From Acidaminococcus sp. CAG:917 (lineage in GTDB: Bacteria > Bacillota > Clostridia > Christensenellales > CAG-917): 64,000 nt of DNA. Shown in pieces: positions 16,224-48,926 of this stretch (its first letter is position 1; each line of letters begins with the position of its first letter). A program made the translations under genes and the position numbers. The stretch lies in contig FR901028.1 in assembly GCA_000437555.1 (NCBI GenBank), positions 128,893-192,892 on the forward strand, in the 5' to 3' direction. Under the pieces are notes generated by a model. The model saw nothing but the letters and a program-made list of their open reading frames with translations, was not told where the DNA came from and made no database searches.

Positions 16224-16224
16224 T

Positions 16225-18907: not shown

Positions 18908-18990
18908 TATTCCTCCTTAGCCTTTAGGGGGCAAAGTTATAAACTTTAAATCAAATAGGTATTATATCAATATTCACACGATTCGTCAAC

Positions 18991-19461: not shown

Positions 19462-19835
19462 ATTTTCCTCCGCATACATTATTGCCAAAGGAAATTTTTT
19501 CAATCACTGCTACGGGTGTTTCCGGAAATTTTTAATTTTTTTCGGGCTGTCTTTTCGCTGTTTAAAAAGATATAAATTTCAAGTAAAAATCGCAATCTCA
19601 AGACGAAACGAGGTTTTGCTTTTTAAATTGATTTCTGCCTTAGCGATTTAAGTTTTTGAGTTTAATGCAATAAATTATATTTTAAATACTTAAAAACAGC
19701 TTAAATAGGGCTTTTTTTGTTATTTTTGCCAAAATATTTACAATATCTGTAAATGATTTTGCTCTGCGCCTATTGATTTTAAAACAATTATGTTATATTA
19801 TATAAACGTATATTATTGTCTAACTAAGGAGAAAA

Positions 19836-20591: not shown

Positions 20592-20629
20592 ACTTTTGCA
20601 GTAAAATTCTGAAATAAGGGGTATGGCTT

Positions 20630-26086: not shown

Positions 26087-26152
26087 TTTCGCTCTCCTTT
26101 GTTGTTTAATATATTTTTTAAATTATTACTATTATTATTATCCCTGTTTATA

Positions 26153-26273
26153 AGTGGATAAATTTTTTATAACACAATATTTAGAAACTAACAATATTAA
26201 AAATCAAAATATAGTGTTTTTTTAATTAATTTTGTGTTGATAACTTTTTTTTATTTTCCACAAAATATCAACA
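26153..26273. promoter_or_regulatory. DnaA-box-like 9-mers in the dnaA-dnaN intergenic region
   Basis: Boxes versus consensus TTATCCACA: AGTGGATAA 26153-26161 (1 mismatch), TGTTGATAA 26235-26243 (1 mismatch), TTTTCCACA 26254-26262 (1 mismatch), ATATCAACA 26265-26273 (2 mismatches). Confidence 0.55.
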
Positions 26274-26292
26274 AAATAAAAAGTTTTCAACA

Positions 26293-27666: not shown

Positions 27667-27673
27667 AGATTAT

Positions 27674-27702
27674 ATTATAACTAAACCAAAAGAATTTTTC
27701 AA
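27674..27702 (-). promoter_or_regulatory. dnaA promoter TTGAAA-17-TATAAT ending 7 nt before the ATG (no SD)
   Basis: The minus strand reads cgTTGAAAaattcttttggtttagtTATAATataatctATG. Confidence 0.55.
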
Positions 27703-27784
27703 CGAATATCGTATTATTTTTATTTTTTTACAATATATGCTTTTTTGGTAATTTTTCATTTTAAAAGATAAAAACTATATTTGT

Positions 27785-27813
27785 TTGTAATATTTTAACT
27801 TTTAATATATAAT
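27785..27813 (+). promoter_or_regulatory. recF promoter TTGTAA-17-TATAAT ending 6 nt before the ATG (no SD)
   Basis: -35 at 27785-27790 and -10 at 27808-27813, then ttgagt and ATG 27820. Confidence 0.5.
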
Positions 27814-27819
27814 TTGAGT

Positions 27820-28887
27820 ATGCAAATCAAAAAACTTTACCTTAAAAATTTCAGAAATTATTCCGAAGAAACGGTAGAATTTTCCGACGGATTAAACGTT
27901 TTATACGGAGCTAACGCAGCGGGAAAAACAAATATGCTTGAGGCTGTTTATCTGACGAGCATAGCCAAAACTCCGAGAACGACAAAGGAAAAAGAACTCG
28001 TTTTGGAAGGTGAAAAATATGCCGTGGTAAAGGTTTTGGTGGAAAACAATTTTCGCAGTCATAAGGTGGAAATAATAATCGACGATAAGGGTAAAAAGAG
28101 AATTTTGGTGGATTCTCTGCCTATCAACAGAGCGGGAGAGTTAATAGGAGTCGTTGCCGTTGTTTTTTTCTCGCCCGACGAAATGAAGCTTGTCAAAGAA
28201 TCTCCGGACTACCGTCGCAGATTTTTGGACATATCCTTATCACAGCAACAAAAAGAGTATTTTAACGCTCTTGTGAAATATAATAAAATTTTAAAACAGC
28301 GCAACAATCTTTTAAAAAGCGACTATGACGATATGGACGCTATGCTGGACGTTTACGACGTTCAACTCTCAGACGTAGGTCTTGTCATTTTGGATAAAAG
28401 AAGGGAGTTTGTAAACACTCTCAAAACTTATGCTTTAAAAACGCATAAATTTTTGAGCGATAACGGCGAAACTTTGGAAGTTGAATACGAAACAGAATTG
28501 ACAAAAGATAACTTTTTAAAGCTTTTAAAGAAAAACAGAGAGAAAGATAAAAAACTGTCGTTTACCACGGTAGGTCCTCATCGCGACGATTTAAAACTTA
28601 TCGTAAACGGAAAGGACGCCAGAAAATTTGCGTCGCAAGGTCAGCAAAGAAGCATAGCCCTTTCTTTAAAGTTTGCCGAATTAGAGCTGTATAAAATCGA
28701 AACGGGCGAAAAAGCCGTTTTGCTTTTGGACGACGTGCTAAGCGAATTAGACGTGAAACGCAGAACTCAGCTTTTAGAGCTTTCAAAGGAATATCAAACA
28801 ATTCTCACCTGCACCGAGTTTGACAGTTATGAAAAGGCGGTAAAATTTAAAATTGAAAACGGAAAGATAATAAAAAGAGAATATTAA
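27820..28887 (+). CDS. recF: DNA replication and repair protein RecF
   Basis: MQIKKLYLKNFRNY, Walker A GANAAGKTNMLEA, signature-like SQGQQRS, and Walker B LLLDDVLSELD. ATG 27820 is preferred over the track's TTG at 27814. Confidence 0.9.
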   Translation: MQIKKLYLKNFRNYSEETVEFSDGLNVLYGANAAGKTNMLEAVYLTSIAKTPRTTKEKELVLEGEKYAVVKVLVENNFRSHKVEIIIDDKGKKRILVDSLPINRAGELIGVVAVVFFSPDEMKLVKESPDYRRRFLDISLSQQQKEYFNALVKYNKILKQRNNLLKSDYDDMDAMLDVYDVQLSDVGLVILDKRREFVNTLKTYALKTHKFLSDNGETLEVEYETELTKDNFLKLLKKNREKDKKLSFTTVGPHRDDLKLIVNGKDARKFASQGQQRSIALSLKFAELELYKIETGEKAVLLLDDVLSELDVKRRTQLLELSKEYQTILTCTEFDSYEKAVKFKIENGKIIKREY

Positions 28888-28983
28888 AATTTTAAAACGA
28901 CCTGTTAAATATTTTTTTAACAAGTTAAATATTTTTTAAGCCTTTAAATTTTAAAATAATGCATTAAAAACGGAAAAAAACAA

Positions 28984-29010
28984 AAAAGCCGCATTCGGCT
29001 TTTTATTTTA
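28984..29010 (+). terminator. Terminator after recF
   Basis: AAAAGCCG-catt-CGGCTTTT stem, then TATTTT. Confidence 0.7.
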
Positions 29011-29082
29011 TCGAAATTGACAAAACAGAGAAACAGAAGAAAAATCGTCAATATTTATTAAATTGCATCTGTTATCTATCAA

Positions 29083-29520
29083 TTAAATTTTTCTGTTTAC
29101 ATTTTCCAAAAACGCTTTACAGCCTTTTAAAATATCGTCGTAGGCTTTGTCAAAATTTCCGGTATACCAAGGGTCTGCAACGTCACGGTTTTCGCCTGTG
29201 AATTCAAGCAGTCTGAATACTTTATTTTGAGGGTCTCCGTTTAATCTTATTACCGTGTTGGTAAAGTTTTCCGTATCCATAACGAGAAAATAATCCGACT
29301 TATCGTAGTCGGAGGACTTTAAAAGCGTAGCGGTATGTTTGGAAAAAGGTATTCCCTCTTTTGTCAGCTTGACTTTTGCGGGATAATACATATCGCTGCC
29401 CAATTCGTCCGTGTGAGTGGCTTTCGAATCAACTTCTATTTTCGGTTCTAAATATTTTAATATAAACTGCGCCATAGGTGAACGGCAGATATTGCCGTGA
29501 CAAACAAACGTGACTTTCAT
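29083..29520 (-). CDS. Low-molecular-weight protein-tyrosine phosphatase
   Basis: Active-site CX5R(S) loop VCHGNICRSPMA at the N-terminus and a DP motif (DVADPWY) near the C-terminus. RBS AGAGGAA. Confidence 0.85.
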   Translation of the reverse strand: MKVTFVCHGNICRSPMAQFILKYLEPKIEVDSKATHTDELGSDMYYPAKVKLTKEGIPFSKHTATLLKSSDYDKSDYFLVMDTENFTNTVIRLNGDPQNKVFRLLEFTGENRDVADPWYTGNFDKAYDDILKGCKAFLENVNRKI

Positions 29521-34272: not shown

Positions 34273-35163
34273 TTAGTTGTTATCTTTTTTTAAAATTTCT
34301 ACCAGCTGATAAATTCTTTCCAGGTCGTCCTTAGAGAAATAATCAATGGAAAATCTTCCTTTTTCCGGTGTTCCGACAAGTTTGACTCTCGTGCCGAAAA
34401 CTCTCTTCATATCGCTGACAAGCTCTTTTAATTCGAGTGTGAGAGGCTGAGTTTTTCTCGGACCGGACGGAATATTCTTTCTTGTCTCATAAAGCCTGAC
34501 TCTGTCTTCGACGTCCCTTACCGTCATTTTGTATTGAACAATCTGTTTGGCAAGATTTATCAAAAATTCTTTATTGTCAATGGTGACGAGAGCTCTTGCG
34601 TGTCCCGAAGAAATCTTTCCGCTTTTGACCATTTCAAGCACTTCCTCGGGAAGAGTTAAAAGTCTTAAAAGGTTTGTTACGTAAGGACGGCTTTTGCCTA
34701 TGCGGTCGGCAACCGCTTCCTGCGTTAGTCCGTGATTTGTCATAAGCTCTTTAATGCCTTCCGCCGCTTCTATTGCGTTTAAATCCTCTCTTTGAATATT
34801 TTCGATGAGGGATATTGCCTTTATTTCCTCGACGGGCAAATCTTTTATAATCGCAGGCACGGTTTTGAGATTTGCTTTCATAGCCGCGCGGTAACGTCTT
34901 TCGCCGGCTACTATTTGATAGCGGCCGTTGGGAAGTTTGGTGACGAGGAGCGGTTGCAGAACTCCGTAAAGCTTCATAGAGTTTGACATTTCCTTTAATG
35001 TTTCTTCGTCAAAAGTTTTACGGGCCTGTTCGGGATTGCGGTCAAGCATCGTTATGTCAAGCTGTTGAATCGCCCCTTCTCCTTCGATATTAACTTCTCT
35101 GTTGTCGGTATAGTCCGCAAACAACGCGCCTATGCCTTTGCCTAATCCTCTCTGTTGTGCCAT
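34273..35163 (-). CDS. parB: Chromosome partitioning protein ParB/Spo0J
   Basis: ParB box GERRYRAA, an HTH region (LTQEAVADRIGKSRPYVTNLLRLL), and position immediately downstream of parA. Confidence 0.9.
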   Translation of the reverse strand: MAQQRGLGKGIGALFADYTDNREVNIEGEGAIQQLDITMLDRNPEQARKTFDEETLKEMSNSMKLYGVLQPLLVTKLPNGRYQIVAGERRYRAAMKANLKTVPAIIKDLPVEEIKAISLIENIQREDLNAIEAAEGIKELMTNHGLTQEAVADRIGKSRPYVTNLLRLLTLPEEVLEMVKSGKISSGHARALVTIDNKEFLINLAKQIVQYKMTVRDVEDRVRLYETRKNIPSGPRKTQPLTLELKELVSDMKRVFGTRVKLVGTPEKGRFSIDYFSKDDLERIYQLVEILKKDNN

Positions 35164-35167
35164 AATC

Positions 35168-35947
35168 TTATCCTTTATTTTTATTTGTTCTGTTTAAAAA
35201 TTCGTTTTTCAAATCGGTATATGCTCTGCTGCCTAAACAATGTTTGTCATACAAAATTACGGGTTTTCCGAAGCTCGGAGCCTCGGCAAGACGAACGTTT
35301 CTCGGAATAATCGTTTTAAACACTTTCTCACAGAAATATTTTTTAATTTCTTCCGATACCTGCTGGCTGAGGTTGGCTCTTGAGTCGTACAGAGTGAGCA
35401 CAACGCCTTCCACTTCAAGTTTGGGATTGAGATATTTTTTTACAAGCATAACGGTATTCATCATCTGCGTTACGCCCTCTAAGGCATAATATTCGCATTG
35501 AATGGGAACTATTATTCCGTCGGACGCGGTAAGCGCATTTACGGTTAAAAGTCCGAGTGACGGCGGACAATCGAGGAAAATGAAATCGAAGTCGGCGCTC
35601 GCCTCGTTTATTTTTTCGGAAAGAATTTTTTCCCTTGCAATCACCACTTGCGCCATCTCAAGTTCCGCCCCGGCAAGGTCCATACAGCTCGGTATAAGCT
35701 TGAGCGTTGCAATGTCGGTATCCACTATCGCATCGGTTGCGCTCATCGAACCGCACAGCAAAGAATACGACGATTTTTCGCTTTTACGGTCGCTGAAACC
35801 TAATCCCGACGACGCGTTGCCTTGAGGGTCAAGGTCGACGACCAAAACTTTGTATCCGTCAAAAGCAAGACATGCCGCAAGATTTATGCACGTCGTCGTC
35901 TTTCCTACGCCGCCCTTTTGGTTGGAAAAAGCAATTATTTTAGCCAT
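35168..35947 (-). CDS. parA: Chromosome partitioning ATPase ParA/Soj
   Basis: Deviant Walker A NQKGGVGKTT at the N-terminus; 259 aa; followed by parB. Confidence 0.9.
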   Translation of the reverse strand: MAKIIAFSNQKGGVGKTTTCINLAACLAFDGYKVLVVDLDPQGNASSGLGFSDRKSEKSSYSLLCGSMSATDAIVDTDIATLKLIPSCMDLAGAELEMAQVVIAREKILSEKINEASADFDFIFLDCPPSLGLLTVNALTASDGIIVPIQCEYYALEGVTQMMNTVMLVKKYLNPKLEVEGVVLTLYDSRANLSQQVSEEIKKYFCEKVFKTIIPRNVRLAEAPSFGKPVILYDKHCLGSRAYTDLKNEFLNRTNKNKG

Positions 35948-36311: not shown

Positions 36312-37010
36312 CTATTCAAATTTCCAAAGCGGAGCTTTTTTGATTGCGTTAAACTGTCTCGGATAAATAGCGGGCGTAGCGGCTGTTTTTTCTATCACGA
36401 TTATCGCTCTTTCGTCACCGTTGGGAAGTTCAAATTTTTTTATGTCTTTCAAGCGGCAATTTATTTTGTTCAAGGCACTTTCCGAATTTTTCAATTCCTT
36501 ATCGTTTGATTTATAGCAGAGCATTATTCCGCCCGCCTTCAGCATGGGAGCAATAAGCTCGCAGAGTATCGGCAAAGTTGCGACCGCTCTCGCCGTGGCA
36601 AAGTCAAATTTTTCCGCTAAAAATCCCCTGCCCGCCTCTTCCGCTCTTGCCGTGACGGCAGTAAGGTTTTTAAGATTTAATTTTTGTGCCGCCTCGTTAA
36701 TAAAAGCGGTTTTTTTTGCAGTGCTGTCAACGGCGGTAACTTTTACCGTCGGCAGTACGATTGCGAGCGGCACGCATGGAAAGCCGCCTCCTGCGCCTAT
36801 GTCGACAAGCGTGCTGTTTTCCGATATAAATTCCGATGCGCACAGACTGTCAATCGTGTGTTTTATTTCAAAGTCAGACTCTTCGGTTATGGCGGTGAGA
36901 TTCATAACTTTGTTTTTTTCCAAAACAATGTGCATGAATCGGTCAAGTTTTTCGGCGATATTTGCGCTTAAATTTTTTTCCGTTAAAAATTTTTCGAGAA
37001 GTTTTCCCAT
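36312..37010 (-). CDS. rsmG: 16S rRNA (guanine527-N7)-methyltransferase RsmG (GidB)
   Basis: SAM motif VDIGAGGGFPCVPLAI, 232 aa, with the classical neighbourhood of parA/parB. Confidence 0.9.
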   Translation of the reverse strand: MGKLLEKFLTEKNLSANIAEKLDRFMHIVLEKNKVMNLTAITEESDFEIKHTIDSLCASEFISENSTLVDIGAGGGFPCVPLAIVLPTVKVTAVDSTAKKTAFINEAAQKLNLKNLTAVTARAEEAGRGFLAEKFDFATARAVATLPILCELIAPMLKAGGIMLCYKSNDKELKNSESALNKINCRLKDIKKFELPNGDERAIIVIEKTAATPAIYPRQFNAIKKAPLWKFE

Positions 37011-37207: not shown

Positions 37208-37897
37208 ATGAAAATTGCAATCATAACGGCAATGGAAAAGGAATGTGACCCAATCTATAAGCATTTAGGTTCGGTTATAGGAAGCGAAAGCGCAGGCGGA
37301 ATGACGATTTATCGTTTTGCCGTGGGCGATAACGACGTGTTTTTACTCTCTTGCGGCATAGGCGAAATTCAGGCGTCTGCCGCAACTCAGCTTGTTATCG
37401 ATAAATATGACGTTGAACTTATCGTCAACCTCGGTTTTGTAGGAAGTCTTGTTCCCGAACTTAAAGCCGGCGACGTTTGTTTCGTCGAGAGAGTCGTTCA
37501 TCATCAATTTGACGTTTCCGGCATTGACGGGGTTAAACGCGGACAGCTGGGAAAACATTCGGACATTTATTTTTATCTCGACAGACAAAAGGTGCTTGCG
37601 CTTCAGTCAAAGCTTCCCGATAAACTTCCGTTTGTCACTTTGGCTAGCGGCGACGAATTTATCTGCGACCGCAAAAAGAAGGATAAGCTTGTAAAAGACT
37701 TTGCCGCCGAAATTTGTGATATGGAACTTGCCGGTATAGCAATCACCGCAAAAAAGAACGGCGTTTCTGTTTTGTCAATCAAACTTGTCTCGGATAACGC
37801 CGACGAAAACGCCGCTATGTCATATAACGATTTTATTAAGGAAGGACTTCTGAAAATGGAAGGAGCAATAGGAATATTGCTGGGTATACTTCATTGA
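37208..37897 (+). CDS. mtnN: 5'-methylthioadenosine/S-adenosylhomocysteine nucleosidase
   Basis: MKIAIITAMEKE N-terminus, GIGEIQAS, and MELAGIA motifs of Pfs/MtnN. RBS GAGGTG. Confidence 0.85.
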   Translation: MKIAIITAMEKECDPIYKHLGSVIGSESAGGMTIYRFAVGDNDVFLLSCGIGEIQASAATQLVIDKYDVELIVNLGFVGSLVPELKAGDVCFVERVVHHQFDVSGIDGVKRGQLGKHSDIYFYLDRQKVLALQSKLPDKLPFVTLASGDEFICDRKKKDKLVKDFAAEICDMELAGIAITAKKNGVSVLSIKLVSDNADENAAMSYNDFIKEGLLKMEGAIGILLGILH

Positions 37898-38322
37898 AAC
37901 GAATAGCGTCTTTTGAAGTCAATCATGACGTGCTTGAGCGTGGTTTTTATCTTTCAAGGGTTGACCGTGATGTTTTTACCTATGACCTTCGTTTTAAAAA
38001 ACCTAACGGCGGTCAATATCTCGATATCAAAGCGATGCATTCGCTCGAGCATATGATGGCAACCGTGGCAAGGAACTCCGATTATGCCGATAAGGTCGTT
38101 TATTTTGGACCTATGGGCTGCCGAACGGGATTTTATCTTTTACTTTTTGGGACGGAATATGACGAAGCAAAAAATTTTGCTCTTGATTGTTTAAAAAAAT
38201 GCCTTGATTTTACTGTCGTTCCCGGAAGCGAACGAGTCGAATGCGGCAATTATCTTGAACACGACCTTGTCGGTGCAAAAAGAGAAATTACAGACTATCT
38301 TGCGTTGATGGAAAGCAAATAA
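37894..38322 (+). CDS. luxS: S-ribosylhomocysteine lyase LuxS
   Basis: HSLEHMMA (HxxEH metal site) and the GPMGCRTGFY Cys ligand. The TTG start overlaps the mtnN stop by 4 nt. Confidence 0.9.
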   Translation: MKRIASFEVNHDVLERGFYLSRVDRDVFTYDLRFKKPNGGQYLDIKAMHSLEHMMATVARNSDYADKVVYFGPMGCRTGFYLLLFGTEYDEAKNFALDCLKKCLDFTVVPGSERVECGNYLEHDLVGAKREITDYLALMESK

Positions 38323-38383
38323 CTGTTTTTTTTAAAAATTATATTCAAATTTATTTCGATAACCTTTTTAAGACAAAAATTTT

Positions 38384-38416
38384 ATCTCAAACGTTTTTCG
38401 TTTGAGATTTTATTTT
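38384..38416 (+). terminator. Terminator after luxS
   Basis: ATCTCAAACG-ttttt-CGTTTGAGAT 10-bp stem, then TTTTATTTT. Confidence 0.85.
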
Positions 38417-39365
38417 GGACAGTATTTTTCCTTAAGTTTTAAATTTTGATAGGTCTGTCATTATGCTACCGAATTTTAATTTTTCTCCGTGGCGCATTTT
38501 CTTTTTATAACTTTTTTATGATATAGCATTATATAGCTTTTTTATTTCGCCTTATTCCGTTTAGTTCTTTAATTTCAAAATTAACGGCTTACTCTTTATT
38601 TTTTGTTCCTTTTTCATTTTTTTTGCAAAATATCGCCAAATAGGTTCAATAGTTAACCTTTTTCTGTAAAAAATCGTCCTCTACGTTTGACGTTGACGAT
38701 TTTTTTGAATAACAACTCGAGACAATGCCAAATCGCCGAATTTTGGCTTACACGCCGTCATATGGCATGGGTTTTTTGAAAAAAATTAAAAATCGGATAA
38801 AATTCCTTTAAAACGGATTTTTTGCTTAAAATATGTTTCTCTTTTCATAATTTTTAAATTTTTCTTTATACCGAGTTTTTTTGCGCTCTTTAAAAGCTTT
38901 CCGTTCAATATTTTTTGCAACAAACTTGTTATCGGCACGCTGAATACAAATCCGAGCGTTTAACTTTTTCGTCTTGATATTTTTGCATTGTTTGTGTTTG
39001 TCTTGTTTCTTTCTCTTTGCGCTATTTCACAATACGAGTCGAACCTCAAATTCAGGTTTACCGTTTTATTAGTTACGTTTAAACGCTTGATTTGTTCAGG
39101 CGACGTCGTTTCATTTGTCGCTATACAATTTTTATTTTATCCTTTGAATTATTGTTAAAACGGTTTATATATTAACTATTATTAAGCAAAAAACATAATT
39201 TTATCAAAAGTTTTTAAAAAATATAGCGCAATTCGCTCAATCTTATTATTTGTCGGCGATTTTTTTTACTTTTTATTAATTTAGTCTGACTTTTTATGCC
39301 GATTTTTTTAGTCGCGTCGATTCGTTTTTACCGGGTAATCAGACGGCTGTCGGATATGACCTTTA

Positions 39366-39374
39366 TGCGGATAA
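39366..39374. promoter_or_regulatory. DnaA box, 1 mismatch (TGCGGATAA = reverse complement TTATCCGCA)
   Basis: Direct 9-mer match to consensus TTATCCACA with 1 mismatch. Confidence 0.5.
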
Positions 39375-39619
39375 CATACAACCTATTCGTTAATTTTACT
39401 TGTTTTATAAGGCGTTTTTAATTCATAGATTCTGTGCTGTTGTATGTATTTCTAAGGGTAAGAGCGCAGGTTATTTGTTTTCAAGTTGCGATAGATTTTG
39501 TTTTTTTGCCTTTTAAGATGCTTAAGCAGTTTTTTAGTATTGGTTTTTTAATTCTTTACAATGGAAATTTGCAGGAAAACTCCGATATGTCTTTTTGCGT
39601 CAATTTTTTCTGTTTTTTG

Positions 39620-39661
39620 TGTGGATAAATATGCATATTTGGTGGAAAAGCCTGTGGAAAA
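39620..39661. promoter_or_regulatory. Three co-oriented DnaA boxes
   Basis: TGTGGATAA 39620-39628 (perfect), GGTGGAAAA 39641-39649 (2 mismatches), TGTGGAAAA 39653-39661 (1 mismatch). Confidence 0.7.
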
Positions 39662-39777
39662 GCATATTTTTGTCTGTTTTTGCTCATTATGAAACATAGT
39701 CGTTTTGCCGTCAATTTCTCTTCGTTTTTACTTTTGTTCGGCATGATTGTGCGTCCGATTTCTTTTAATTTTTCTTA

Positions 39778-39793
39778 TGTTTCACGTGAAACA
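39778..39793. promoter_or_regulatory. parS site, perfect 16-bp palindrome TGTTTCACGTGAAACA
   Basis: Matches the Spo0J/ParB parS consensus TGTTNCACGTGAAACA at 16 of 16 positions. Confidence 0.85.
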
Positions 39794-39818
39794 TTTTATT
39801 TTTGATTTTTACGGTGAT

Positions 39819-39834
39819 TGTTCCACGTGAAACG
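39819..39834. promoter_or_regulatory. parS site TGTTCCACGTGAAACG (1 mismatch)
   Basis: 15 of 16 match to the parS consensus. Centre lies 41 bp from the first site. Followed by hairpin AAAACGCC-gtatttag-GGCGTTTT. Confidence 0.8.
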
Positions 39835-40049
39835 GAAAAACGCCGTATTTAGGGCGTTTTGGGCGTATTTTTGCTTAAAAAACGGGCATTTTGCTTAATA
39901 AAATGAGTCCGAAAGCCTTTTTGAATAAGACGGATACAATAAAGAAATTATGCTGAAGAGACGAGAAAAGTAAGCGTTAATACCGCCGAAACGGATATGG
40001 AGAATTTAATTTGTCGCTGACTCGGATTCGCCGTAGAAATTTGCGAAAC

Positions 40050-40100
40050 TTATCCCCTTTTTTTTGATATATCCACAACAAAGTGGTGCGATGTGGATAA
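40050..40100. promoter_or_regulatory. DnaA-box trio including a convergent pair
   Basis: TTATCCCCT 40050-40058 (2 mismatches), ATATCCACA 40069-40077 (1 mismatch), TGTGGATAA 40092-40100 (perfect, opposite orientation). Confidence 0.7.
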
Positions 40101-40541
40101 ACGTATTTAAACTGATATTTTTATCGTATAATTCCGTTCAGATGACCCAAAATAAATGTAATCCGCTCTTCGATATCTCGTTTTTTGCTCGGATAGGTAA
40201 AGAAACATATAAAAGGTATTAAAAGTTTCCTTATTATTAAATCTGCACGAGTTCCGACGGAGTTTAGTTTAAATACATAAAAAGCTTTTGCGGATATTGT
40301 TGCAAAAGGATAAACTGTCATTTTTGCGGTATTGTTTTTAATCCATACGTCGGCTGCCATAAAGACGGAGAGTTATTTTTTGAAAAGCCGTATTTTTTTT
40401 AGGATTGGAAATGAATTCAATAATTCATCCGGGAACGGTTAGCAAAATTTTGCCGATTGAATTTGCCTGTTGTCGGAATTAAATACGGCATTATAATACA
40501 TAATTAATCTGTCGGAAATCATATCCGAAAAAGGAGTTTTG

Positions 40542-40691
40542 ATGAAATGCTTTGAATGCGGTAAAGAAATCGCGGAAGACGAAACTTTTTATTGCCCGAG
40601 ATGCGGAGCGACGGTTTGCAATAATTGCAACGATATAAATGAAAACGTCTGTCCTTATTGCAACAGGTCGAATCTATATTTATATAATTAA
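40542..40691 (+). CDS. 49-aa Cys-rich double zinc-ribbon microprotein (hypothetical)
   Basis: Not in the ORF track (under 60 aa). Sequence MKCFECGKEIAEDETFYCPRCGATVCNNCNDINENVCPYCNRSNLYLYN, with four CxxC pairs. RBS AAGGAG 5 nt upstream. Possible promoter TTGTCG-16-TATAAT at 40470-40497. Confidence 0.45.
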   Translation: MKCFECGKEIAEDETFYCPRCGATVCNNCNDINENVCPYCNRSNLYLYN

Positions 40692-40925
40692 AATGCGGCA
40701 ATGCATAAAGCTGCGTTAAACTGCAATTTATTTTTGCTCGGTCGCTAAAGCCATATCGATGAGTTAAGAATCTTTTAAGCTTCTGAATTGAAATTAAAAA
40801 GCGGCTTAGATAAGGTTAGAATATTTGTTTTGAAAAGAGTAATTGAAAATATAGCAACGGAATAGGGTTGACTGTTAAAAAGGATTTAAAATATTGATAT
40901 GAGAGAAAACCCGATAAACGCAAAT

Positions 40926-40941
40926 TGTTTCACGTGAAACC
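40926..40941. promoter_or_regulatory. parS site TGTTTCACGTGAAACC (1 mismatch)
   Basis: 15 of 16 match to the parS consensus. Confidence 0.8.
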
Positions 40942-41681
40942 GTTTGCGTTTATACTTTAAAAAACATATAAAACAAAGAATTTGAATAATAGTCATTGTC
41001 CAAGTGCCGAATAAAAAATTTTTCATAAAAAACAATAAGGAAATCAAGAATAACGCTATCCAATAAATTCGAGGGAAAAGCGGTATGTTATTTACCGAAA
41101 CATACCGACTCATATGACGATTTTATAAATAGGCGACTATCGTCATATTAATTATGCTTTAACAGCGAATAAGGTGTAAAAAAGACAAAAAGCAAAAGGG
41201 AACATTTGCAAAGACTGCCGAAATAAAGCTTTGAAAGCTTTAAAACAGACATTGAAAATTTAAAAAAAAGAGACTTTTATAAATTTAAAAATCAGCCAAA
41301 CAAAATAAAAAATAAAGAGCTGCAATATACGGAGCAAATGGGTAAATTGAAAGTTCGGGAATTATACCGCGAATAGATTAAGCAAATATGAATAAAGACG
41401 GAAAGAGAAAAAATATGCTGCAAGAAGCGAAAACCGAAATCGAACGCGTCGGTCAAAAAAAAGGGAATTGAGGTCAAAAGTCGCTGAAAAGTAAAAAAAA
41501 TATACAGTTAGAATAAGTTAACTTGTAAATTAAAAGGCTGAAAAATATTTTATAAAAGCTGAAATTGAAGACAGAGCAGCCCTTTAAAAAGTCAAATACG
41601 GCGTAGAACGCGATATTTAACGCGGTAAACGGCAGTTTGATTATTTATACGGCGGAAAATTTAAGCCTTAATAAAGGCGTT

Positions 41682-43052
41682 TTACGGCGTGACTGAAATT
41701 TGCACCGGGTCGGACGAAGTATAGCCGTCTTTAGTTGCCACGATTTGAATAACGTCGTTTTCGGTTATAGGTAAAGAAGAAAAATCGTAGAAACGGCTAT
41801 CCGACACAACGGCAACCAGAGCGTTGTTTAAATAAATTTCAAAATTTGCCGAAGAAGCATATTCCCAATATAAAACGCCGTCTGAAATATATACGCTTTC
41901 GGGAGCATCGAGTTTAGGTTCGTATACGAAGAAAGTGTATATTTCCGTTATATAAGCGTTATCGTATAAAATAACGGAAAGGTAATTATAACCCGTGTAA
42001 AGAAACGACGAAACGTTTACAAAAATGCAGTAGTATTCCTTATTGTCTATCAGAACCGTCGTTTTTCCCGCAGTTTCGCATTTGTCGAGATTTATGTCGG
42101 GCACGGAAACGATATCGGAGGTAAAGAAGAATGTATCGTTAAGATACAATTCAAAATATTCAACGTTGCTCCGGGCGTAGAAAATGCAGAAACATTCGTC
42201 ACCGATTGCCGAAGCGGAAAGAAACTCGTTTGAAAATATTTCCTCCGGATTGTCGTCGGCGGGCGGTTCGGCTACGGGAATTTCAACGCTAATCGAGCCC
42301 GTGCGGCTAAAACATTCGTTTATCGCCGCGACCTCAATCATGTATGAATTGCCTTCTTTCAGCAAATGCGAAATATCGTAGCTTGATGCAAATACCGTTT
42401 CGATATACGTTCCGTCGACATAAATTTCGTAGCCGAGCGCGTTTTCGCATATATCCCAAGACAAGATACCGCCGCCGAAAGTCAAAACGGGAGCCAAAGG
42501 CGCAAGGACATACTTTGCGTAAACCGAAGTATCGGCGCTTGGATAATAACGGAAAGACTTTCGGTCGGACAAAAGCGAGTCGCCTATATACCAACCGAGA
42601 AAAACGGAATCGTCGTTTTCCGATGCGGTAAGGTCGATACAGTCGTAAACTTGGTGAGCTCCCGTATTTTGATGCGCCGGATTGTTTGAAGAAACGGTAA
42701 CCGTATAGGGTTCAAAGAGATAGGCGAATACGGTTATAAAGGAATCCGATTCCGTAATCTCGAGCGAATTGCAAGAAAAAGTATAACCGTCGGCAGAAAA
42801 AGACAATACGTCTTTAACGTTTAGCGAATCTAAATAAAACGTACCCGTGTCGTCTGTTTGGTAACGCAAAGAGCCGTTTACGAATACGTAAACGTTTGCC
42901 AAAGGCAAATCGCCGAAAGTGATTTTGCCCGATACGAATAATTCGTCTGCGGTCTTTTCTGAAGGGATATTATCGGAATCGTTGCACGCACAAAGTAAAA
43001 TCGGAAGAAAGCAAAGAATAAGCAAAATAAAAATTAAGACCAATAATTTCAT
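41682..43052 (-). CDS. Surface lipoprotein with CarboxypepD_reg-like, Listeria-Bacteroides-repeat-like and Fn3-like modules
   Basis: Signal peptide with Cys (LPILLCAC). VSGKITFGDLPLANVYVFVNG...GTFYL (Cna-B/CarboxypepD_reg-like). FLGWYIGDSLL (Flg_new-like). Two L-x-AP...L-x-W...Y-E-I-Y modules. Confidence 0.7.
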   Translation of the reverse strand: MKLLVLIFILLILCFLPILLCACNDSDNIPSEKTADELFVSGKITFGDLPLANVYVFVNGSLRYQTDDTGTFYLDSLNVKDVLSFSADGYTFSCNSLEITESDSFITVFAYLFEPYTVTVSSNNPAHQNTGAHQVYDCIDLTASENDDSVFLGWYIGDSLLSDRKSFRYYPSADTSVYAKYVLAPLAPVLTFGGGILSWDICENALGYEIYVDGTYIETVFASSYDISHLLKEGNSYMIEVAAINECFSRTGSISVEIPVAEPPADDNPEEIFSNEFLSASAIGDECFCIFYARSNVEYFELYLNDTFFFTSDIVSVPDINLDKCETAGKTTVLIDNKEYYCIFVNVSSFLYTGYNYLSVILYDNAYITEIYTFFVYEPKLDAPESVYISDGVLYWEYASSANFEIYLNNALVAVVSDSRFYDFSSLPITENDVIQIVATKDGYTSSDPVQISVTP

Positions 43053-43181
43053 AAGTAACCTATAAGGGCGTCAAAAGGGCGTAAGACGCCGGTAACGAAT
43101 AAAATATATTAAGTATAAAAACGCAATCCAAAGCCGAATACGCCCCTTTCGGGGCGTATAAATTATCAAAGCGAAATCAGT

Positions 43182-43970
43182 TTAAGCGCTTGGCCATTCG
43201 GCAACGGACGAGCGGTAACCTTCCGCAAAAGCGGTAACGGTGAAGCTATCGACGGGAGTGTCCAAAAGTATATAGTTTTGAGTCAGGTTATAAGTGGAAA
43301 CAGATTCGCCCGAGACGACTTCTAAGATATAGCCTTCCGCATGATTGACTTTTGACCAGGTTACGAGATAGCTTCCGATATATGCGACGGAAAGATTTTT
43401 GGCAGGAGCTAACAGAGGCGTATATAAAATGTTTAAATAAGACGGCATTGAATATTCTCCGTTAGCTTCAGAAACAACCGAAACGCAGTAAGCGCCGCCC
43501 GAAAGAATATAATTTGAAAGGTTTATTTGCGTGTCGGTAACGTCAGCCACTTTGATTTTGGAGACATATACGTGATGCACCGTCGCAGAAGAATCGGCGT
43601 TGAAATGCAGAAAGTCTCCGTCGAAATACAAAGCCGACGGTGAATCAAGCGATATGGTATACTCTATCTCCTTTATAAGGGTTCCGTTTGAGTAAACCTC
43701 GATGGTATTTTCGCCGGATTCAAGGTAGTCGCCGATATCGATTAATACGTCGTCCGCAGTTCCGTAAAATACGTAAGAATTCGTATTGGTTATTCGGACT
43801 TCGAAATCGCCGTCGCAAGCAACTTTAAGGCAGTATCTGCCGTCGGAAACTGTCACGGCGAACGATTCTGCAGCGGCGCAGGCTATGGAAAAACAGGGCA
43901 CAAAAGCCAATGCGATAATGCTCAATGCCGCAAAAATAATCGCGGATTTAAAGATAATTGCTCGTTTCAT
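43182..43970 (-). CDS. Secreted protein with repeated Fn3-like modules (paralogous modules shared with the downstream lipoprotein)
   Basis: Start set at ATG 43970 (MKRAIIFKSAIIFAALSIIALAF... signal peptide, AAA-E cleavage-like site); the track start 44006 is TTG. Modules LLAPAKNLSVAYIGSYLVTWSKVNHAEGYILEV. Confidence 0.65.
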   Translation of the reverse strand: MKRAIIFKSAIIFAALSIIALAFVPCFSIACAAAESFAVTVSDGRYCLKVACDGDFEVRITNTNSYVFYGTADDVLIDIGDYLESGENTIEVYSNGTLIKEIEYTISLDSPSALYFDGDFLHFNADSSATVHHVYVSKIKVADVTDTQINLSNYILSGGAYCVSVVSEANGEYSMPSYLNILYTPLLAPAKNLSVAYIGSYLVTWSKVNHAEGYILEVVSGESVSTYNLTQNYILLDTPVDSFTVTAFAEGYRSSVAEWPSA

Positions 43971-43976
43971 TTCAAA

Positions 43977-44006
43977 ATTATAACAAAATTCGACAAAAAA
44001 TAGCAA
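43977..44006 (-). promoter_or_regulatory. Promoter TTGCTA-18-TATAAT ending 6 nt before ATG 43970 (no SD)
   Basis: The minus strand reads TTGCTAttttttgtcgaattttgtTATAATtttgaaATG. Confidence 0.45.
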
Positions 44007-44039: not shown

Positions 44040-44048
44040 TTTTCCACA
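44040..44048. promoter_or_regulatory. DnaA box TTTTCCACA (1 mismatch)
   Basis: Direct 9-mer match. Lies 8 bp upstream of the AT tract below. Confidence 0.45.
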
Positions 44049-44056
44049 TTTAGTTG

Positions 44057-44142
44057 TTAATATATAAAATATATATTATAATAATAACAATTTTTTTAAT
44101 ATTATATATACAATATAAATATATAAAAATCAATATAAATAT
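44057..44142. other. 86-bp tract with only three C and no G (about 96% A+T); DUE-like
   Basis: Counted directly: the only non-A/T bases are C at 44088, 44111 and 44131. Contains the direct repeat CAATATAAATAT at 44111 and 44131. Confidence 0.6.
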
Positions 44143-44397
44143 CGGTAAAATACCGTATGAAATCGAAGCAAAAATATCTCGGTTTAAAAGCAGGTTTTTT
44201 GTTCGGGTTCAAAATCGGGCGGAAAATTCAAACCGCTCATTACCGAAACATTCGGGTTTTGACAGTTATGGAAAACCCGACGCTTATATATCGAAAAGAC
44301 GGCGTTTTCCGATTATTTTTTACCGTCTTATAAGCAAGATATCCAGCTAAAAAAGATGCTTGTTTTAATAAATAAAATCACTAAAACGGAGGCTTAA

Positions 44398-46329
44398 ATG
44401 AGCTCAGTTCAACACAGTTATAACGAATCGGATATACAGGTTTTAGAGGGACTCGAACCTGTCAGAAAAAGACCGGGTATGTATATCGGTTCAACCGATT
44501 CAAGAGGCTTGCACCACCTTGTTACCGAAGTCGTCGATAACTCTATCGACGAGGCTTTGGCGGGTTTCTGCACCGATATCGACGTGGAGATAACCAACGA
44601 AGGCGCAATAAAAGTCAAAGACAACGGCAGAGGCATTCCCACGGGTATTATTCCCGGCGAAGGTAAATCGGCGGTTGAAGTAGTTTTGACCAAACTTCAC
44701 GCAGGCGGTAAATTCGGCAGCGGCGGTTATAAAGTTTCGGGCGGTCTGCACGGCGTCGGCGTATCCTGCGTCAATGCTCTGAGCGAATGGCTCGAAGTCG
44801 AGGTAAGGCAAAACGGGAAGGTATACAAACAGATTTTCAACAGAGGAGTTCCTCAGCGTGACCTTGCCGTCGTCGGCGAATCGGACGAAACGGGAACGAC
44901 AATAACTTTTTATCCCGACGACACGATTTTTGAAACGCTCGAGTTTAACTATGATACGTTAAAGGCGAGGCTCAGAGAGCTTGCCTACTTAAACAAAGGT
45001 CTGAAAATCAGAATTACCGATTCAAGAGTAGACCCCGTAAAGAGCGAGCTTTTCTGTTATGAGGGCGGTATAGTTTCTTTTGTAGAGAGTTTAAACAAGA
45101 GCAAGGAAACGGTTTTCCCCGAAGTCATCTATTTCGATAAAAATTATACGGAAACGGTAAAGGGCGTTACCGACACTTACGAGGCGGAAGTCGCTTTTCA
45201 ATATAACGACAGTTACAGCGAAACTATACTCAGTTTTGCAAACAACATAAACACGGAAGAGGGCGGAACGCACCTCGACGGCTTCAAATTCGCCATATCG
45301 AAATGTATAAACGACTACGGCAAAAAGCAGGGGCTCATTAAAGATTCCGAAAAGCTCAGCGGCGAGGACACAAGAGAAGGCATTACCGCCGTCATATCCG
45401 TAAAGCTGGGCAATCCGCAGTTTGAGGGACAGACAAAAACCAAACTCGGCAACAGCGTTGTAAGAAGCATAGTTTCAAAGGCGATTGTGGACGGTTTCGG
45501 AACATATCTCGAGGAGCACCCCAAAGAGGCGAAAGAGCTGATAATGAAAACGCTTACCGCACAGAGGGCGAGAGAGGCGGCAAGAAACGCCAGAGAACTT
45601 GCAAGAAGAAAGAGCCCGCTGGAGACGACCACTCTTCCCGGAAAACTTGCCGACTGCACGGACAAAGAAGCGAAATACTGCGAGATATACCTCGTTGAGG
45701 GCGACAGCGCGGGCGGCACGGCAAAACAGGGCAGAGACAGACGCTTTCAGGCTATATTGCCGCTAAGAGGCAAAATTTTAAACGTCGAAAAGGCAAGGCT
45801 TCACAGAGTGCTCGAAAACGAAGAAATCAAAGCGATGATAACGGCTTTCGGCTGCGGAATACATCAGGACTACGACGAATCCAAGCTCCGTTACGACAGA
45901 ATTATATGTATGACGGATGCCGACGTCGACGGCTCACACATCAGAATACTTATGCTCACCTTCTTCTTCAGATATATGCGTCCGCTCATCGAAAACGGAC
46001 ACGTCTATATCGCTCAGCCGCCGCTGTATAAGGTCAAGACGGGAAAGAAGGAAGAATATTTCTATGACGACGAATCGTTAAACGCTTATCTCGACTCTCT
46101 CGACCGAAAAGGCTATGAAATTCAAAGATATAAAGGTCTGGGCGAGATGAACGCAGAGCAGCTGTGGGAGACAACTATGGACCCGGCAAGAAGGACTCTG
46201 CTTAAGGTCACAATGGAAGACGCAATCGAAGCGGATTCGATAATCAGCACTCTTATGGGCGAAGACGCGGAACTGAGACGTCAATTCATTGAAGAGAACG
46301 CAAAACTCGTGGAAGAGCTTGACGTATAA
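44398..46329 (+). CDS. gyrB: DNA gyrase subunit B
   Basis: [26 protein letters not shown], the GHKL ATPase (DNGRGIP), the Toprim [12 protein letters not shown], and [10 protein letters not shown]. Confidence 0.97.
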
Positions 46330-46340
46330 GGAGAAGCAAT

Positions 46341-48926
46341 ATGGCAAAGCAAGAAAAAGAAAGAAACTACATAGAAGACTTATCCAAATCGACGGTCAAG
46401 CCTGTCGAGGTTAACAGCGAACTTAAAAAATCGTTTATCGCTTATGCTATGGCGGTCAACGTATCGAGAGCCATTCCCGACGTCAGGGACGGTCTTAAAC
46501 CCGTTCACCGCCGTATACTCTATTCGATGAACGAGTTAAACCTCGCTTCCGACAGACCGTACCGTAAGTGTGCGCTTATCGTAGGCGACGTTTTGGGTAA
46601 ATATCACCCCCACGGCGACAGCTCCGTTTACGACGCCCTCGTCAGACTTGCGCAGGACTTCTCTATCGGCTGTCCGCTCATCGACGGACACGGAAACTTC
46701 GGCTCGGTGGACGGAGACCCGCCTGCCGCATACCGTTATACGGAAGCGAGAATGAGCAAGATTGCCGCCGAAATGATAAGGGATATAGACAAAAAGACGG
46801 TTGACTTTTATCCCAACTTCGACGATACGAGAATGCAGCCGACCGTATTGCCTGCCCGTTATCCCAATCTTTTGGTAAACGGTTCGGACGGAATTGCCGT
46901 CGGTATGGCGACGAGCATACCCCCTCACAATCTCGGAGAGGTTATCGACGCTACAATCGCACTCATCAAAAATCCCGAAATGACGGTGGACGAACTCATC
47001 GAATATATTCCTGCTCCCGACTTTCCGACGGGCGCAATCGTGCTCGGCAGGGGCGGAATAAGGCAGGCATACCGCACGGGCAAAGGTTCGGCGATAATCA
47101 GGGCTAAGACGGACATCGAAGAACTTCCCAACGGAAAGAGCAGAATAGTTATAACGGAAATACCCTATCAGGTCAACAAGGCGAAACTCATCGAAACGAT
47201 TGCCGACCAGGTCAGGGACAAGAGAATAGAAGGCATTGCCGACGTTGCCGAGGAAACGGACAGGACAGGTATGCGAATTGTCGTCGAAACGAAAAAGGAC
47301 GCCAACGCTCAGGTGGTGCTCAACACGCTCTTTAAACAGACCCAGCTTCAGACCAACTTTTCAATTATCCTTTTGGCGTTGGTGGACGGTGTGCCCAAAA
47401 TACTCAACCTTAAAGAAATACTCACCGCCTATATCGCTCACCAAGAGGACGTCATTATCCGCAGGACAAAATTCGACCTCGAAAAGGCAGAGGAGAGAGC
47501 GCACATCTTAGAAGGTCTTGCCATTGCTCTTGCCAATATAGACGAAGTGGTGGACACACTCAAAAAGTCGAAAGAAAGAGCGGACGCCATGCAAAAGCTC
47601 ATGGAAAGGTTTTTGCTTTCCGAAAAGCAGGCAAATGCCGTGCTCGAAATGAAGCTCCAGCGTCTTACTTCTCTCGAAGTGGAAAAGATAAACGAAGAGC
47701 TTGAAGAAAAGCATAAAGAGATTGCCGAATACAAACGCATACTTTCCTCCATTGACGCCGTAAAGGAAATAATCATAGAGGAAATGAGCGAGATAAAGGA
47801 CAAATACGCTCAGCCGAGAAAATCGGAAATCAGCTACGATTATTCCGACATAGATATAGCCGACCTCATCGAAAAAGAGGACGTAGTTATCACAATGACT
47901 CACGAAGGCTACGTCAAGCGACTTCCCGTTGCGGAATACAGAAGCCAGCACAGGGGCGGCACGGGCATAACGGCACATAAGGCAAAAGAAGAAGACTTTA
48001 TCGAGGAAATGTTCACCTGCTCGTCGCACGACGATTTGCTCTTCTTCACCAATCTCGGAAAGGTGTTCGGGCTCAAGGCGTATGAAATTCCCGAAGCGCA
48101 GAGAACGGCAAGGGGCAGAGCGATGGTCAATCTTTTGCAGCTTACCCCGGGCGAGAAGGTCACGAACGTGCTTCCCTTCTATGAAACGCAAAAGGGCTAC
48201 CTTGTGCTTGCAACCAAAAAAGGACTAATCAAAAAGACGGACGTAAGCGAATATATGTCGATAAAGAAAAACGGCAAGATTGCAATTACGTTCAACGAAA
48301 ACGACGAACTCATCGCAGCATACTTCAGCAGCGGCGAGGACGAAATAATTGTCGGCGCGACGAACGGAAACTGTATTCGATTCAGCGAAAAGGACGTCCG
48401 CCCGACAAGCAGAACGGCAATGGGCGTAAAGAGCATAGAGCTTCCCGAGGGCGCGGAAGTCGTCGATATGGCTGTGCTCAAAGAGGGCTCCGAGATTTTG
48501 ACGATAACTGAAAAGGGCTTCGGCAAACGCAGCGAATATCCCGACTATCCCAAACAGGGCAGAGCGGGCAAAGGCGTAAAGGCAGGCGTGTTCAACTCCA
48601 AGACGGGCAGACTCGTAGCTCTTAAAGTTCTGCCGCCCGAAATGGACGTCATGATAATCACCAACGGCGGAATAATCATTCGTATGGTGGCGGACGAAAT
48701 TTCCAAATTCGGCAGAGATACGCAGGGCGTAAAGGTCATGAGACTGAAAGCGGACGAGCTTATCTCGAGCGTAACGCTCACGCCTCACGAGGACGAGGAA
48801 GAGGAACAGACGGACGGCGAGGACTTTATCTCAAAGCCGGAGGAAGTGGACATATCACAGGATTCTATCCCCACCGAAACTTCTTCCACTCCGCAGACGG
48901 ACAAGCCGCAGGACGACGAAGAGTAA
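46341..48926 (+). CDS. gyrA: DNA gyrase subunit A
   Basis: RAIPDVRDGLKPVHRRILY, the QRDR-type GDVLGKYHPHGDSSVYDALVR, the active-site AAYRYTEARM, C-terminal beta-pinwheel repeats, and an acidic tail. Confidence 0.97.
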   Translation: MAKQEKERNYIEDLSKSTVKPVEVNSELKKSFIAYAMAVNVSRAIPDVRDGLKPVHRRILYSMNELNLASDRPYRKCALIVGDVLGKYHPHGDSSVYDALVRLAQDFSIGCPLIDGHGNFGSVDGDPPAAYRYTEARMSKIAAEMIRDIDKKTVDFYPNFDDTRMQPTVLPARYPNLLVNGSDGIAVGMATSIPPHNLGEVIDATIALIKNPEMTVDELIEYIPAPDFPTGAIVLGRGGIRQAYRTGKGSAIIRAKTDIEELPNGKSRIVITEIPYQVNKAKLIETIADQVRDKRIEGIADVAEETDRTGMRIVVETKKDANAQVVLNTLFKQTQLQTNFSIILLALVDGVPKILNLKEILTAYIAHQEDVIIRRTKFDLEKAEERAHILEGLAIALANIDEVVDTLKKSKERADAMQKLMERFLLSEKQANAVLEMKLQRLTSLEVEKINEELEEKHKEIAEYKRILSSIDAVKEIIIEEMSEIKDKYAQPRKSEISYDYSDIDIADLIEKEDVVITMTHEGYVKRLPVAEYRSQHRGGTGITAHKAKEEDFIEEMFTCSSHDDLLFFTNLGKVFGLKAYEIPEAQRTARGRAMVNLLQLTPGEKVTNVLPFYETQKGYLVLATKKGLIKKTDVSEYMSIKKNGKIAITFNENDELIAAYFSSGEDEIIVGATNGNCIRFSEKDVRPTSRTAMGVKSIELPEGAEVVDMAVLKEGSEILTITEKGFGKRSEYPDYPKQGRAGKGVKAGVFNSKTGRLVALKVLPPEMDVMIITNGGIIIRMVADEISKFGRDTQGVKVMRLKADELISSVTLTPHEDEEEEQTDGEDFISKPEEVDISQDSIPTETSSTPQTDKPQDDEE

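Follow-up and report, generated by a model that had tools for sequence, protein, structure and literature searches.

A conserved cluster of DnaA boxes interleaved with parS sites, 13 kb from a candidate unwinding module beside dnaN, in an uncultured gut Clostridia genome

In the 64,000-nucleotide stretch of the Acidaminococcus sp. CAG:917 assembly analysed here (contig FR901028.1, positions 128,893 to 192,892; hereafter the window), a cluster of boxes for the replication initiator DnaA occupies positions 39366–40100, in the middle of a gene-poor region; the cluster is 11.7 kb and about eleven genes away from the start of dnaA. The reading that we prefer, with a probability of roughly 0.55, is that this locus is an origin-proximal DnaA-box cluster fused to a parS centromere, and that the chromosome opens beside dnaN, 13 kb off. 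Read from the left, the locus shows three boxes in tandem, then two parS sites, then a small hairpin and finally a convergent pair of boxes; a third parS site follows 0.8 kb further on. It is placed 13.2 kb from the dnaN-proximal module, inside the skew turning zone of the window. A module of the unwinding type is present beside dnaN; in the flagged cluster no such module could be detected. Since the region is situated between convergent genes, its boxes do not serve the promoter of a flanking gene.

The DnaA boxes were scored as mismatches to TTATCCACA. A first-pass annotation had claimed seven boxes in these 735 bp, all of which were found at the positions and with the mismatch counts that it reported. 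The tandem boxes are on the minus strand and comprise the perfect TTATCCACA at 39620–39628, the two-mismatch TTTTCCACC at 39641–39649, 21 bp start-to-start from the first one, and the one-mismatch TTTTCCACA at 39653–39661, 3 bp past the second. The convergent pair, whose 14-bp gap had also been described correctly, has ATATCCACA at 40069–40077 (plus strand, one mismatch) as its left arm and the perfect TTATCCACA at 40092–40100 (minus strand) as its right arm. These five boxes are kept across species, but the remaining two of the seven, TTATCCGCA at 39366–39374 (minus strand, one mismatch) and the weak TTATCCCCT at 40050–40058 (plus strand, two mismatches), are species-specific.

The cluster is real and non-random. 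The window contains only two perfect TTATCCACA sites, both in the cluster (0.34 expected), and 33 boxes with at most one mismatch versus 11.7 ± 3.3 expected; boxes with two mismatches are common (251 in the window). Five boxes with at most one mismatch per 735 bp were reached in none of 100 first-order Markov simulations of 64 kb (the maximum was four, obtained once) and in none of 1500 simulations with the composition of the intergenic region (maximum three), and two or more perfect boxes appeared in none of the 1500 composition-matched simulations. The claim of a dense cluster thus stands as far as density beyond chance is concerned, but the window has a second dense locus: the dnaA–dnaN region, which the first-pass annotation overlooked, holds four boxes with at most one mismatch and 11 with at most two per 735 bp, against five and nine in the flagged cluster.

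The boxes are accompanied by parS sites, all three of which (39778, 39819 and 40926) were missing from the earlier feature list, otherwise sound in its boxes. The 16-bp parS sequence TGTTNCACGTGAAACA is matched in the window by these sites only, with zero, one and one mismatches (0.14 expected). The perfect palindrome TGTTTCACGTGAAACA (39778–39793) and TGTTCCACGTGAAACG (39819–39834, one mismatch) are found between the tandem boxes and the convergent pair, and TGTTTCACGTGAAACC (40926–40941, one mismatch) is the site 0.8 kb beyond the pair. With its 16-bp palindromes, origin-proximal and 3.8–5 kb from parA, and with cognate parA and parB genes present, the locus has the sequence features of a putative parS centromere. 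The parA and parB products are predicted to use these sites, with ParB binding there and spreading.

Evidence for function comes from comparison with relatives: L011 (ParB 96% identical to that of the window) and L012 and L013 (78%), which tell more than contigs of the same species, and L014 (59%). In ten contigs of the same species the elements are kept in all, the box at 39366 being present in eight of the ten. In a 950-bp alignment, the 97 feature columns of L011, L012 and L013 are 94–96% identical to the window versus 36–46% in the other 854 columns; the features conserved are the boxes at 39620, 39641, 39653, 40069 and 40092, two parS sites, and two 10-mers, TATGAAACAT (39688–39697) and TTTGCGAAAC (40040–40049, just upstream of the convergent pair). 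The 39620 box is identical at 9/9 positions and the 39653 box at 8/9 in L011, L012 and L013, and in the relatives the 40069 box is identical at 8–9/9 and the 40092 box at 9/9. The position of the 39641 box keeps a box in every relative (TGTGGAAAA in L011, TGTTGATAA in L012 and L013) within a gap-free block. The identity of the box at 39366 is 1–2/9 in L011–L013 and that of the 40050 box 3–5/9. The parS site at 39778 is preserved at 16/16 positions in all relatives and that at 39819 at 14–15/16, and L011 possesses a parS site at a distance from the box pair that matches the 40926 site. The 10-mers are invariant, TATGAAACAT at 10/10 in all four rows of relatives and TTTGCGAAAC at 10/10 in all relatives, and to our eye each resembles a parS half-site (GTGAAACA) with one change. 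The tandem boxes keep their distances of 21 and 12 bp without change, and the gap in the convergent pair is 14 bp in the window and 12–13 bp in the relatives, while single boxes shift among zero, one and two mismatches between lineages. This variation of mismatch counts at fixed spacing argues for selection for binding and not for one exact sequence. The comparison shows the boxes and the parS sites to be under purifying selection.

Similar associations are found at greater distances. In L014, parS and two perfect boxes are located between pfs and gyrB, and in a further genome, L027, four parS sites and three perfect boxes share a 1.7-kb non-coding stretch about 12 kb from the dnaA/dnaN module. 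Divergent box pairs with an identical 29-bp gap lie beside parS in L014 (7903–7949), L027 (12856–12902), L031 (3168) and L033 (12528), and convergent box pairs 12–16 bp apart are seen repeatedly in the clade, in clusters at origins as well as in others.

The A/T tracts at 39400–39900, a segment that spans the tandem boxes and parS, follow the 10.5-bp helical period with a power of 12.8 versus about 1 for noise. Similar periodicity is present in L011, L013 and L014 and is not found in L012. Such phasing suggests intrinsically curved DNA, which could favour the assembly of DnaA or ParB complexes. At 39836–39861 (plus strand) the consensus fold gives an A-run, a short GC hairpin and a T-run, similar to a bidirectional terminator; the candidate was rejected as weak, with eight consensus pairs and a compensatory change in only one of them.

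The unwinding of the origin between dnaA and dnaN was demonstrated experimentally in B. subtilis and C. difficile (PMC8287927, PMC7561715). The layout of the unwinding module in these systems includes two boxes, a short GC spacer, DnaA-trios that are T-centred on the box strand (e.g., CTACTACTA) and AT-rich DNA (PMC8287927, PMC7561715). Our test for such a module, based on the basal unwinding system of Richardson 2019 and Pelliciari 2021, asked for a box with at most two mismatches, an abutting second box being optional, and at least three DnaA-trios (middle A, bound strand) within 0–16 bp of it. The 206-bp dnaA–dnaN spacer contains six boxes with at most two mismatches. Read in the dnaA-to-dnaN direction, positions 26161–26098 have the order TTATCCACT-TTATAAACA-GGG-(NTN)7-AT-rich: the likely unwinding module starts with the overlapping boxes TTATCCACT and TTATAAACA (26145–26161, minus strand), continues after the GGG spacer with the seven T-centred triplets ATA ATA ATA ATA GTA ATA ATT, which may be regarded as degenerate DnaA-trios (26121–26141, minus strand), and ends with the AT-rich stretch TAAAAAATATATTAAAC (26098–26120, minus strand), a candidate DNA-unwinding element that reaches from the triplets towards the ribosome-binding site of dnaN. 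This arrangement is the canonical Firmicute one and agrees with the layout that opens in B. subtilis and C. difficile (PMC8287927, PMC7561715). Four further boxes with one or two mismatches occupy 26235–26292 of the same spacer. Among all 40-bp duplexes of the 64 kb, only three are less stable than the segment 26102–26142.

The module is conserved together with dnaN. The box pair is homologous upstream of dnaN in L011, L012, L014, L020–L022, L027 and L034, and in four species (that of the window, L011, L012 and L014) a constant 73–76 nt separate the module from the start of dnaN. The triplets retain their T phase in spite of base changes (7/7 in L011, 6/7 in L012 and 6/7 in L014), and in L014 the module stays with dnaN although dnaA is not upstream. 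Distant relatives that have a classical box-rich dnaA–dnaN spacer carry a homologous TTATCCACA-TTTGCACAG-ACAATAATAATA... module, and L027 has trios of the CTA type. In the flagged interval 39366–40100, the trio scan detected at least four T-centred triplets after no box with one mismatch or fewer, the only matches being two TTATTCAAA words with two mismatches and four triplets. The 25 least stable 40-bp segments of the window all fall outside the interval; the closest of them is at 39164–39204 (rank 18). In two more distant Clostridia metagenome-assembled genomes, L018 (8850–8925) and L017 (9550–9621), a textbook unwinding module TTATCCACA..CCAC-CTAATACTATTACTACTATTA-AT-rich is found in the spacer beside parB; it is 5–8 kb from dnaA and dnaN is not nearby, so the origin there is uncoupled from dnaA.

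Among the known systems, a close parallel is offered by B. subtilis. Six clusters of DnaA boxes (DBCs) lie outside oriC there, mostly near the origin, and they act jointly with Spo0J/Soj to hold back initiation (Okumura et al. 2012, PMC3245932). The flagged locus has the sequence features expected of a putative DBC, being an intergenic multi-box cluster near the origin and outside the unwinding region, in a Firmicute that has Soj/Spo0J and origin-proximal parS. A negative or buffering control of DnaA is the role proposed for both. Unlike the DBCs, the boxes described here are interleaved with parS in one conserved module between convergent genes, whereas several of the B. subtilis clusters sit in promoter regions. 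The first-pass annotation had offered the choice between the origin itself and a DnaA-titration or regulatory locus. The regulatory option is favoured by the conserved high-affinity boxes near the origin and outside the likely unwinding site, and the origin option is the weaker, with neither trios after the strong boxes of the cluster nor an unstable AT-rich element beside the conserved ones. The accompanying statement that either layout would be non-canonical for Firmicutes was overstated, given the six B. subtilis DBCs outside oriC, most of them origin-proximal (PMC3245932).

In Caulobacter crescentus, DnaA boxes are present in the parS centromere, a locus separate from the origin though linked to it (Mera et al. 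2014, as reviewed in PMC6399470). The likeness lies in DnaA boxes within a parS region, which points to a role for the initiator at the centromere in addition to the origin. The differences are the phylum and the cell-cycle logic, and the fact that the DnaA-dependent movement of the centromere is experimental in Caulobacter, while here we deal only with co-location in the sequence.

The E. coli loci datA, DARS1 and DARS2 are non-origin DnaA-box clusters that modulate the activity of the initiator (Katayama et al. 2017, PMC5742627); IHF and Fis, which belong to their defining features, are proteobacterial (PMC5742627). The tandem boxes in the same orientation (head-to-tail) are reminiscent of datA and the oppositely oriented pair (head-to-head) of the DARS core, but the number of boxes is different and their spacing appears to be so too, the sequences are not homologous, and the likeness would be one of functional analogy only. 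The search for the IHF site WATCAANNNNTTR gave none within 39366–40100, the nearest being at 39080 and 40887 and the total in the window being that expected by chance. Identity with datA was rejected because no IHF site lies between the boxes, though tandem boxes are present. The polarity of the compact three-box DARS core, in which box I points against the other two, is borne by 40050(+), 40069(+) and 40092(−), but the 40050 box is weak and not conserved.

The bipartite Firmicute oriC (incAB/incC of B. subtilis; oriC1/oriC2 of C. difficile, PMC7561715) also consists of two clusters, of which only the one upstream of dnaN contains trios and an unwinding element. Unlike in those origins, a distance of 13 kb with some eleven genes separates the two clusters of the window, which do not flank dnaA, and parS is present in the cluster that lacks the unwinding element. 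An oriC1 is a group of boxes directly in front of dnaA, with that gene alone between it and the unwinding sub-region; in the window, the 147 bp before dnaA (27667–27813) contain no box with two or fewer mismatches, as had been reported in the first pass. P. aeruginosa has oriCII at gidAB-parAB, located in the promoter of gidA, whose operon it regulates (PMC13438810). The flagged cluster resembles it as a second DnaA-box region near rsmG(gidB)-parAB, distinct from the dnaA-linked origin; unlike oriCII, it is separated from the 5′ end of rsmG by 2.3 kb that include pfs and luxS, and is flanked by the 3′ ends of two genes.

From this point of view a mechanism may be proposed, in which the binding of DnaA and ParB and the regulatory outcome are inferred from the sequence. 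DnaA would occupy the five conserved high-affinity boxes by means of its domain IV, and ParB would load at the interleaved parS sites and spread over the neighbourhood. The locus could then serve as an origin-proximal sink or regulator of DnaA, buffering the active initiator, as do the B. subtilis DBCs with Spo0J/Soj. DnaA may in addition act at the centromere as in Caulobacter, which would couple initiation to the segregation of the origin. The coupling of DnaA with ParABS/SMC is supported by a genetic link in B. subtilis and Caulobacter, and its mechanism is poorly understood. The locus is a clean, phylogenetically footprinted case, in an uncultured lineage of gut Clostridia, of a conserved module remote from dnaA that unites DnaA boxes with parS sites, and such modules are test beds for the coupling of initiation (DnaA) with segregation (ParABS/SMC).

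The strand asymmetry of the window gives a divided picture. The minimum of the cumulative G–C skew is at 26598, that of the purine excess at 39824 and that of the A–T skew at 40473. In a logistic change-point model with gene orientation as a covariate, the all-site GC change-point falls at 26–28 kb, 9.6 log-likelihood (lnL) units over the flagged region; the change-point of GC skew at third codon positions (GC3) favours neither locus, and the GC skew at four-fold sites has almost no replichore signal. In L012 the dnaN-dnaA-recF-phosphatase block (16061–20761) is inverted relative to positions 24980–29520 of the window and to L011, the esterase-amylase-parBA side being unchanged, and dnaA and dnaN of L012 are co-directional with the replication forks only if the start is the dnaN module.

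Several observations weigh against the location of the start beside dnaN or against a general link of boxes with parS. The change-points of AT skew at third codon positions (AT3) and at all sites are at 38–41.5 kb, with about 20 and 40–50 lnL units, respectively, over the dnaA locus, and the purine disparity switches at 38–41.5 kb and not at dnaA. The AT skew at four-fold sites, averaged over gene orientations, is −0.09 at 27.8–38.3 kb, close to the −0.065 of the left flank and opposite in sign to the +0.08 of the right one. The gene orientation of L014 agrees somewhat better with a start at the cluster. The triplets on the dnaN side are degenerate (ATA, not CTA) and are located in AT-rich DNA, and the dnaA–dnaN spacer is devoid of perfect boxes, the best boxes of the locus being in the flagged cluster. 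Finally, in the wider clade the association of parS with DnaA boxes is about two-fold only (0.87 versus 0.48 boxes per kb), and the claim is therefore restricted to the nearer relatives plus some others. Because the contested interval is only 12 kb long and evolutionarily unstable, skew was not used to decide. One skew curve or box density alone would yield two predictions of the origin here (26.6 kb and 39.8 kb), and a decision requires that trios and an unwinding element be taken as the criterion.

These points bear most directly on the two alternatives in which the cluster participates in initiation; taken together, the true origin and the distal half of a split origin make a tentative proposition, well short of even odds. 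That the cluster is the replication origin, with DnaA on its perfect boxes opening AT-rich DNA close by and the dnaN-proximal module being a relic or a control region of dnaN only, we consider unlikely. Both perfect boxes of the window and the clustered parS sites are found there, the AT3, all-site AT and purine-disparity change-points coincide with it, and in the non-coding DNA of the region the GC skew flips at about 39.3 kb and the AT skew at about 39.9 kb. Its position between rsmG-parAB and gyrBA mirrors the usual neighbourhood of Firmicute origins, and the modules of L017 and L018 demonstrate that a textbook unwinding module away from dnaA does occur in this group. However, no run of DnaA-trios accompanies the strong boxes and no low-stability element adjoins the conserved ones; the GC skew points to 26–28 kb, and forks starting from the cluster would meet dnaA and dnaN of L012 head-on. 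The strong T-rich/A-rich asymmetry of the non-coding DNA, which we tried as an origin signature, was rejected as a mark of replication because L012 and L013 lack it. The interval is also too short and too rearranged for any skew to be decisive. A split bipartite origin, with the cluster in the oriC1/incAB role and looping by DnaA–DnaA contacts or ParB bridging to the dnaN module 13 kb away, seems quite improbable. It would agree with the box-free 147 bp upstream of dnaA, which lack the oriC1 that is commonly situated there, with the recurrence of two loci 7–13 kb apart in L012, L014 and L027, with the requirement for both sub-regions in the in vitro unwinding of the C. difficile origin (PMC7561715), and with the bent DNA suggested by the helically phased A/T tracts at 39400–39900. 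The known bipartite origins, however, are separated by dnaA alone, about 1.4 kb (PMC7561715), and distant relatives with a large box-rich dnaA–dnaN spacer are box-free upstream of dnaA as well, so that the monopartite state seems to be ancestral. The view that the module of perfect boxes and parS is either the true start or an obligatory long-range partner of the dnaN module is, in our estimation, a doubtful one. If it were true, this would be a Firmicute origin split over 13 kb, with a high-affinity DnaA platform fused to the centromere, and a single conserved composite element would link the loading of ParB mechanically to the assembly of DnaA.

The boxes might instead be operators for a small local gene or a non-coding RNA, either the Zn-ribbon open reading frame (ORF) described below or a leftward transcript across the tandem boxes. 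A TATAAT hexamer is indeed present at 40118–40123, 18 bp past the convergent pair, a promoter-like site on the minus strand (39714–39686) reads into the tandem boxes, the position of the Zn-ribbon ORF relative to the pair is kept in L011 and L012, and DnaA is a transcription factor at several B. subtilis DBCs (PMC3245932) and at P. aeruginosa oriCII (PMC13438810). Promoter-like sites are, however, about as numerous as in shuffled sequences (16 versus 13.2 ± 4.0), the −35 element of the minus-strand site is not conserved, and the Zn-ribbon ORF has a promoter-like site of its own, about 370 bp from the pair. The Rfam search of the region found no RNA. Five conserved boxes with parS exceed the needs of a simple operator, and we regard this explanation as very doubtful. 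An accidental build-up of box-like words is conceivable in non-coding DNA as AT-rich as this (GC about 0.32), in a window where two-mismatch words are so common (251), but four boxes or two perfect ones were never reached in the 1500 composition-matched simulations, and the invariance of the boxes across species, with flanks only 36–46% identical, refutes it; its probability is negligible.

The lineage of the window belongs to uncultured Clostridia related to Christensenellales metagenome-assembled genomes (MAGs) from the gut; its ParB has 96% identity to its counterpart in a MAG labelled 'uncultured Clostridia bacterium' and 59% to the ParB of a Christensenellales MAG. Genes were mapped with the ORF list and Pfam. 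The sequence of genes begins with dnaN (24980–26086) and dnaA (26293–27666), both on the minus strand, and the recF-like gene on the plus strand (27814–28887). Five unrelated genes and a tRNA-Asn separate the latter from parB (34273–35163, minus strand; Pfam ParB_N and HTH_ParB), which is followed by parA (35168–35947, minus; AAA_31 and ParA), rsmG (36312–37010, minus), pfs (37208–37897, plus) and luxS (37894–38322, plus). The gene-poor region of 3.36 kb (38323–41681) extends between the 3′ ends of luxS and a convergent gene on the minus strand for a hypothetical protein of 456 aa; to the right of the region are, in total, two hypothetical genes on the minus strand (41682–44006), gyrB (44398–46329, plus) and gyrA (46341–48926, plus).

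Within the gene-poor region, the public gene calls for ten contigs of the same species give only one ORF of 63–79 aa. The sole conserved coding sequence there is the Zn-ribbon ORF of 49 aa (40542–40691, plus strand), with 73% identity in L011 and 55% in L012 (tblastn), weak rubrerythrin-like/Zn-ribbon matches and a promoter-like site at 40470–40497. No Rfam family was detected in the region at gathering or permissive thresholds. A plasmid or phage origin of the region was rejected, as similarity to neither was found, and so was an oriC1 orphaned by gene loss: the search for decayed dnaA, dnaN, recF and rpmH in the region gave nothing better than E=0.4.

The two hypothetical genes at 41682–44006 look like a variable insertion. 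They are without a Pfam or NCBIfam match and have 36–44% identity to their counterparts in L011 (572–2889), the flanking genes being more than 90% identical; L014 is without both of them, and the cluster is there directly upstream of gyrB. In the window, L011, L012 and L014, the GC content of dnaN, dnaA and recF (24980–28887) is 6–10 points below that of their neighbours (0.35–0.37 versus 0.42–0.48 in the window). An ORF of 1100 aa at 20630–23932 also has no Pfam or NCBIfam match.

Some further DnaA boxes were observed outside the two main loci. The first 30 codons of dnaA contain two convergent boxes (27582–27624), each with one mismatch, separated by a 25-bp gap, and these boxes inside the coding sequence may represent an autoregulatory site. 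The divergent spacer between hyp274 and gyrB (44040–44152) contains a box TTTTCCACA at 44040, which is a perfect TTATCCACA in L011 and is absent in L012. The box adjoins the least stable 40-bp duplex of the window (44070–44110), within about 100 bp of almost pure A/T, and may mark a DnaA-controlled promoter or a third DnaA site. As a third candidate for the origin, upstream of gyrB, it was dropped because of its absence in L012. In the 5′ leader of gyrB (44290–44335) a hairpin followed by a T-run (aagacggcgttttccgattattttttaccgtctt), spotted by eye only, may constitute an attenuator.

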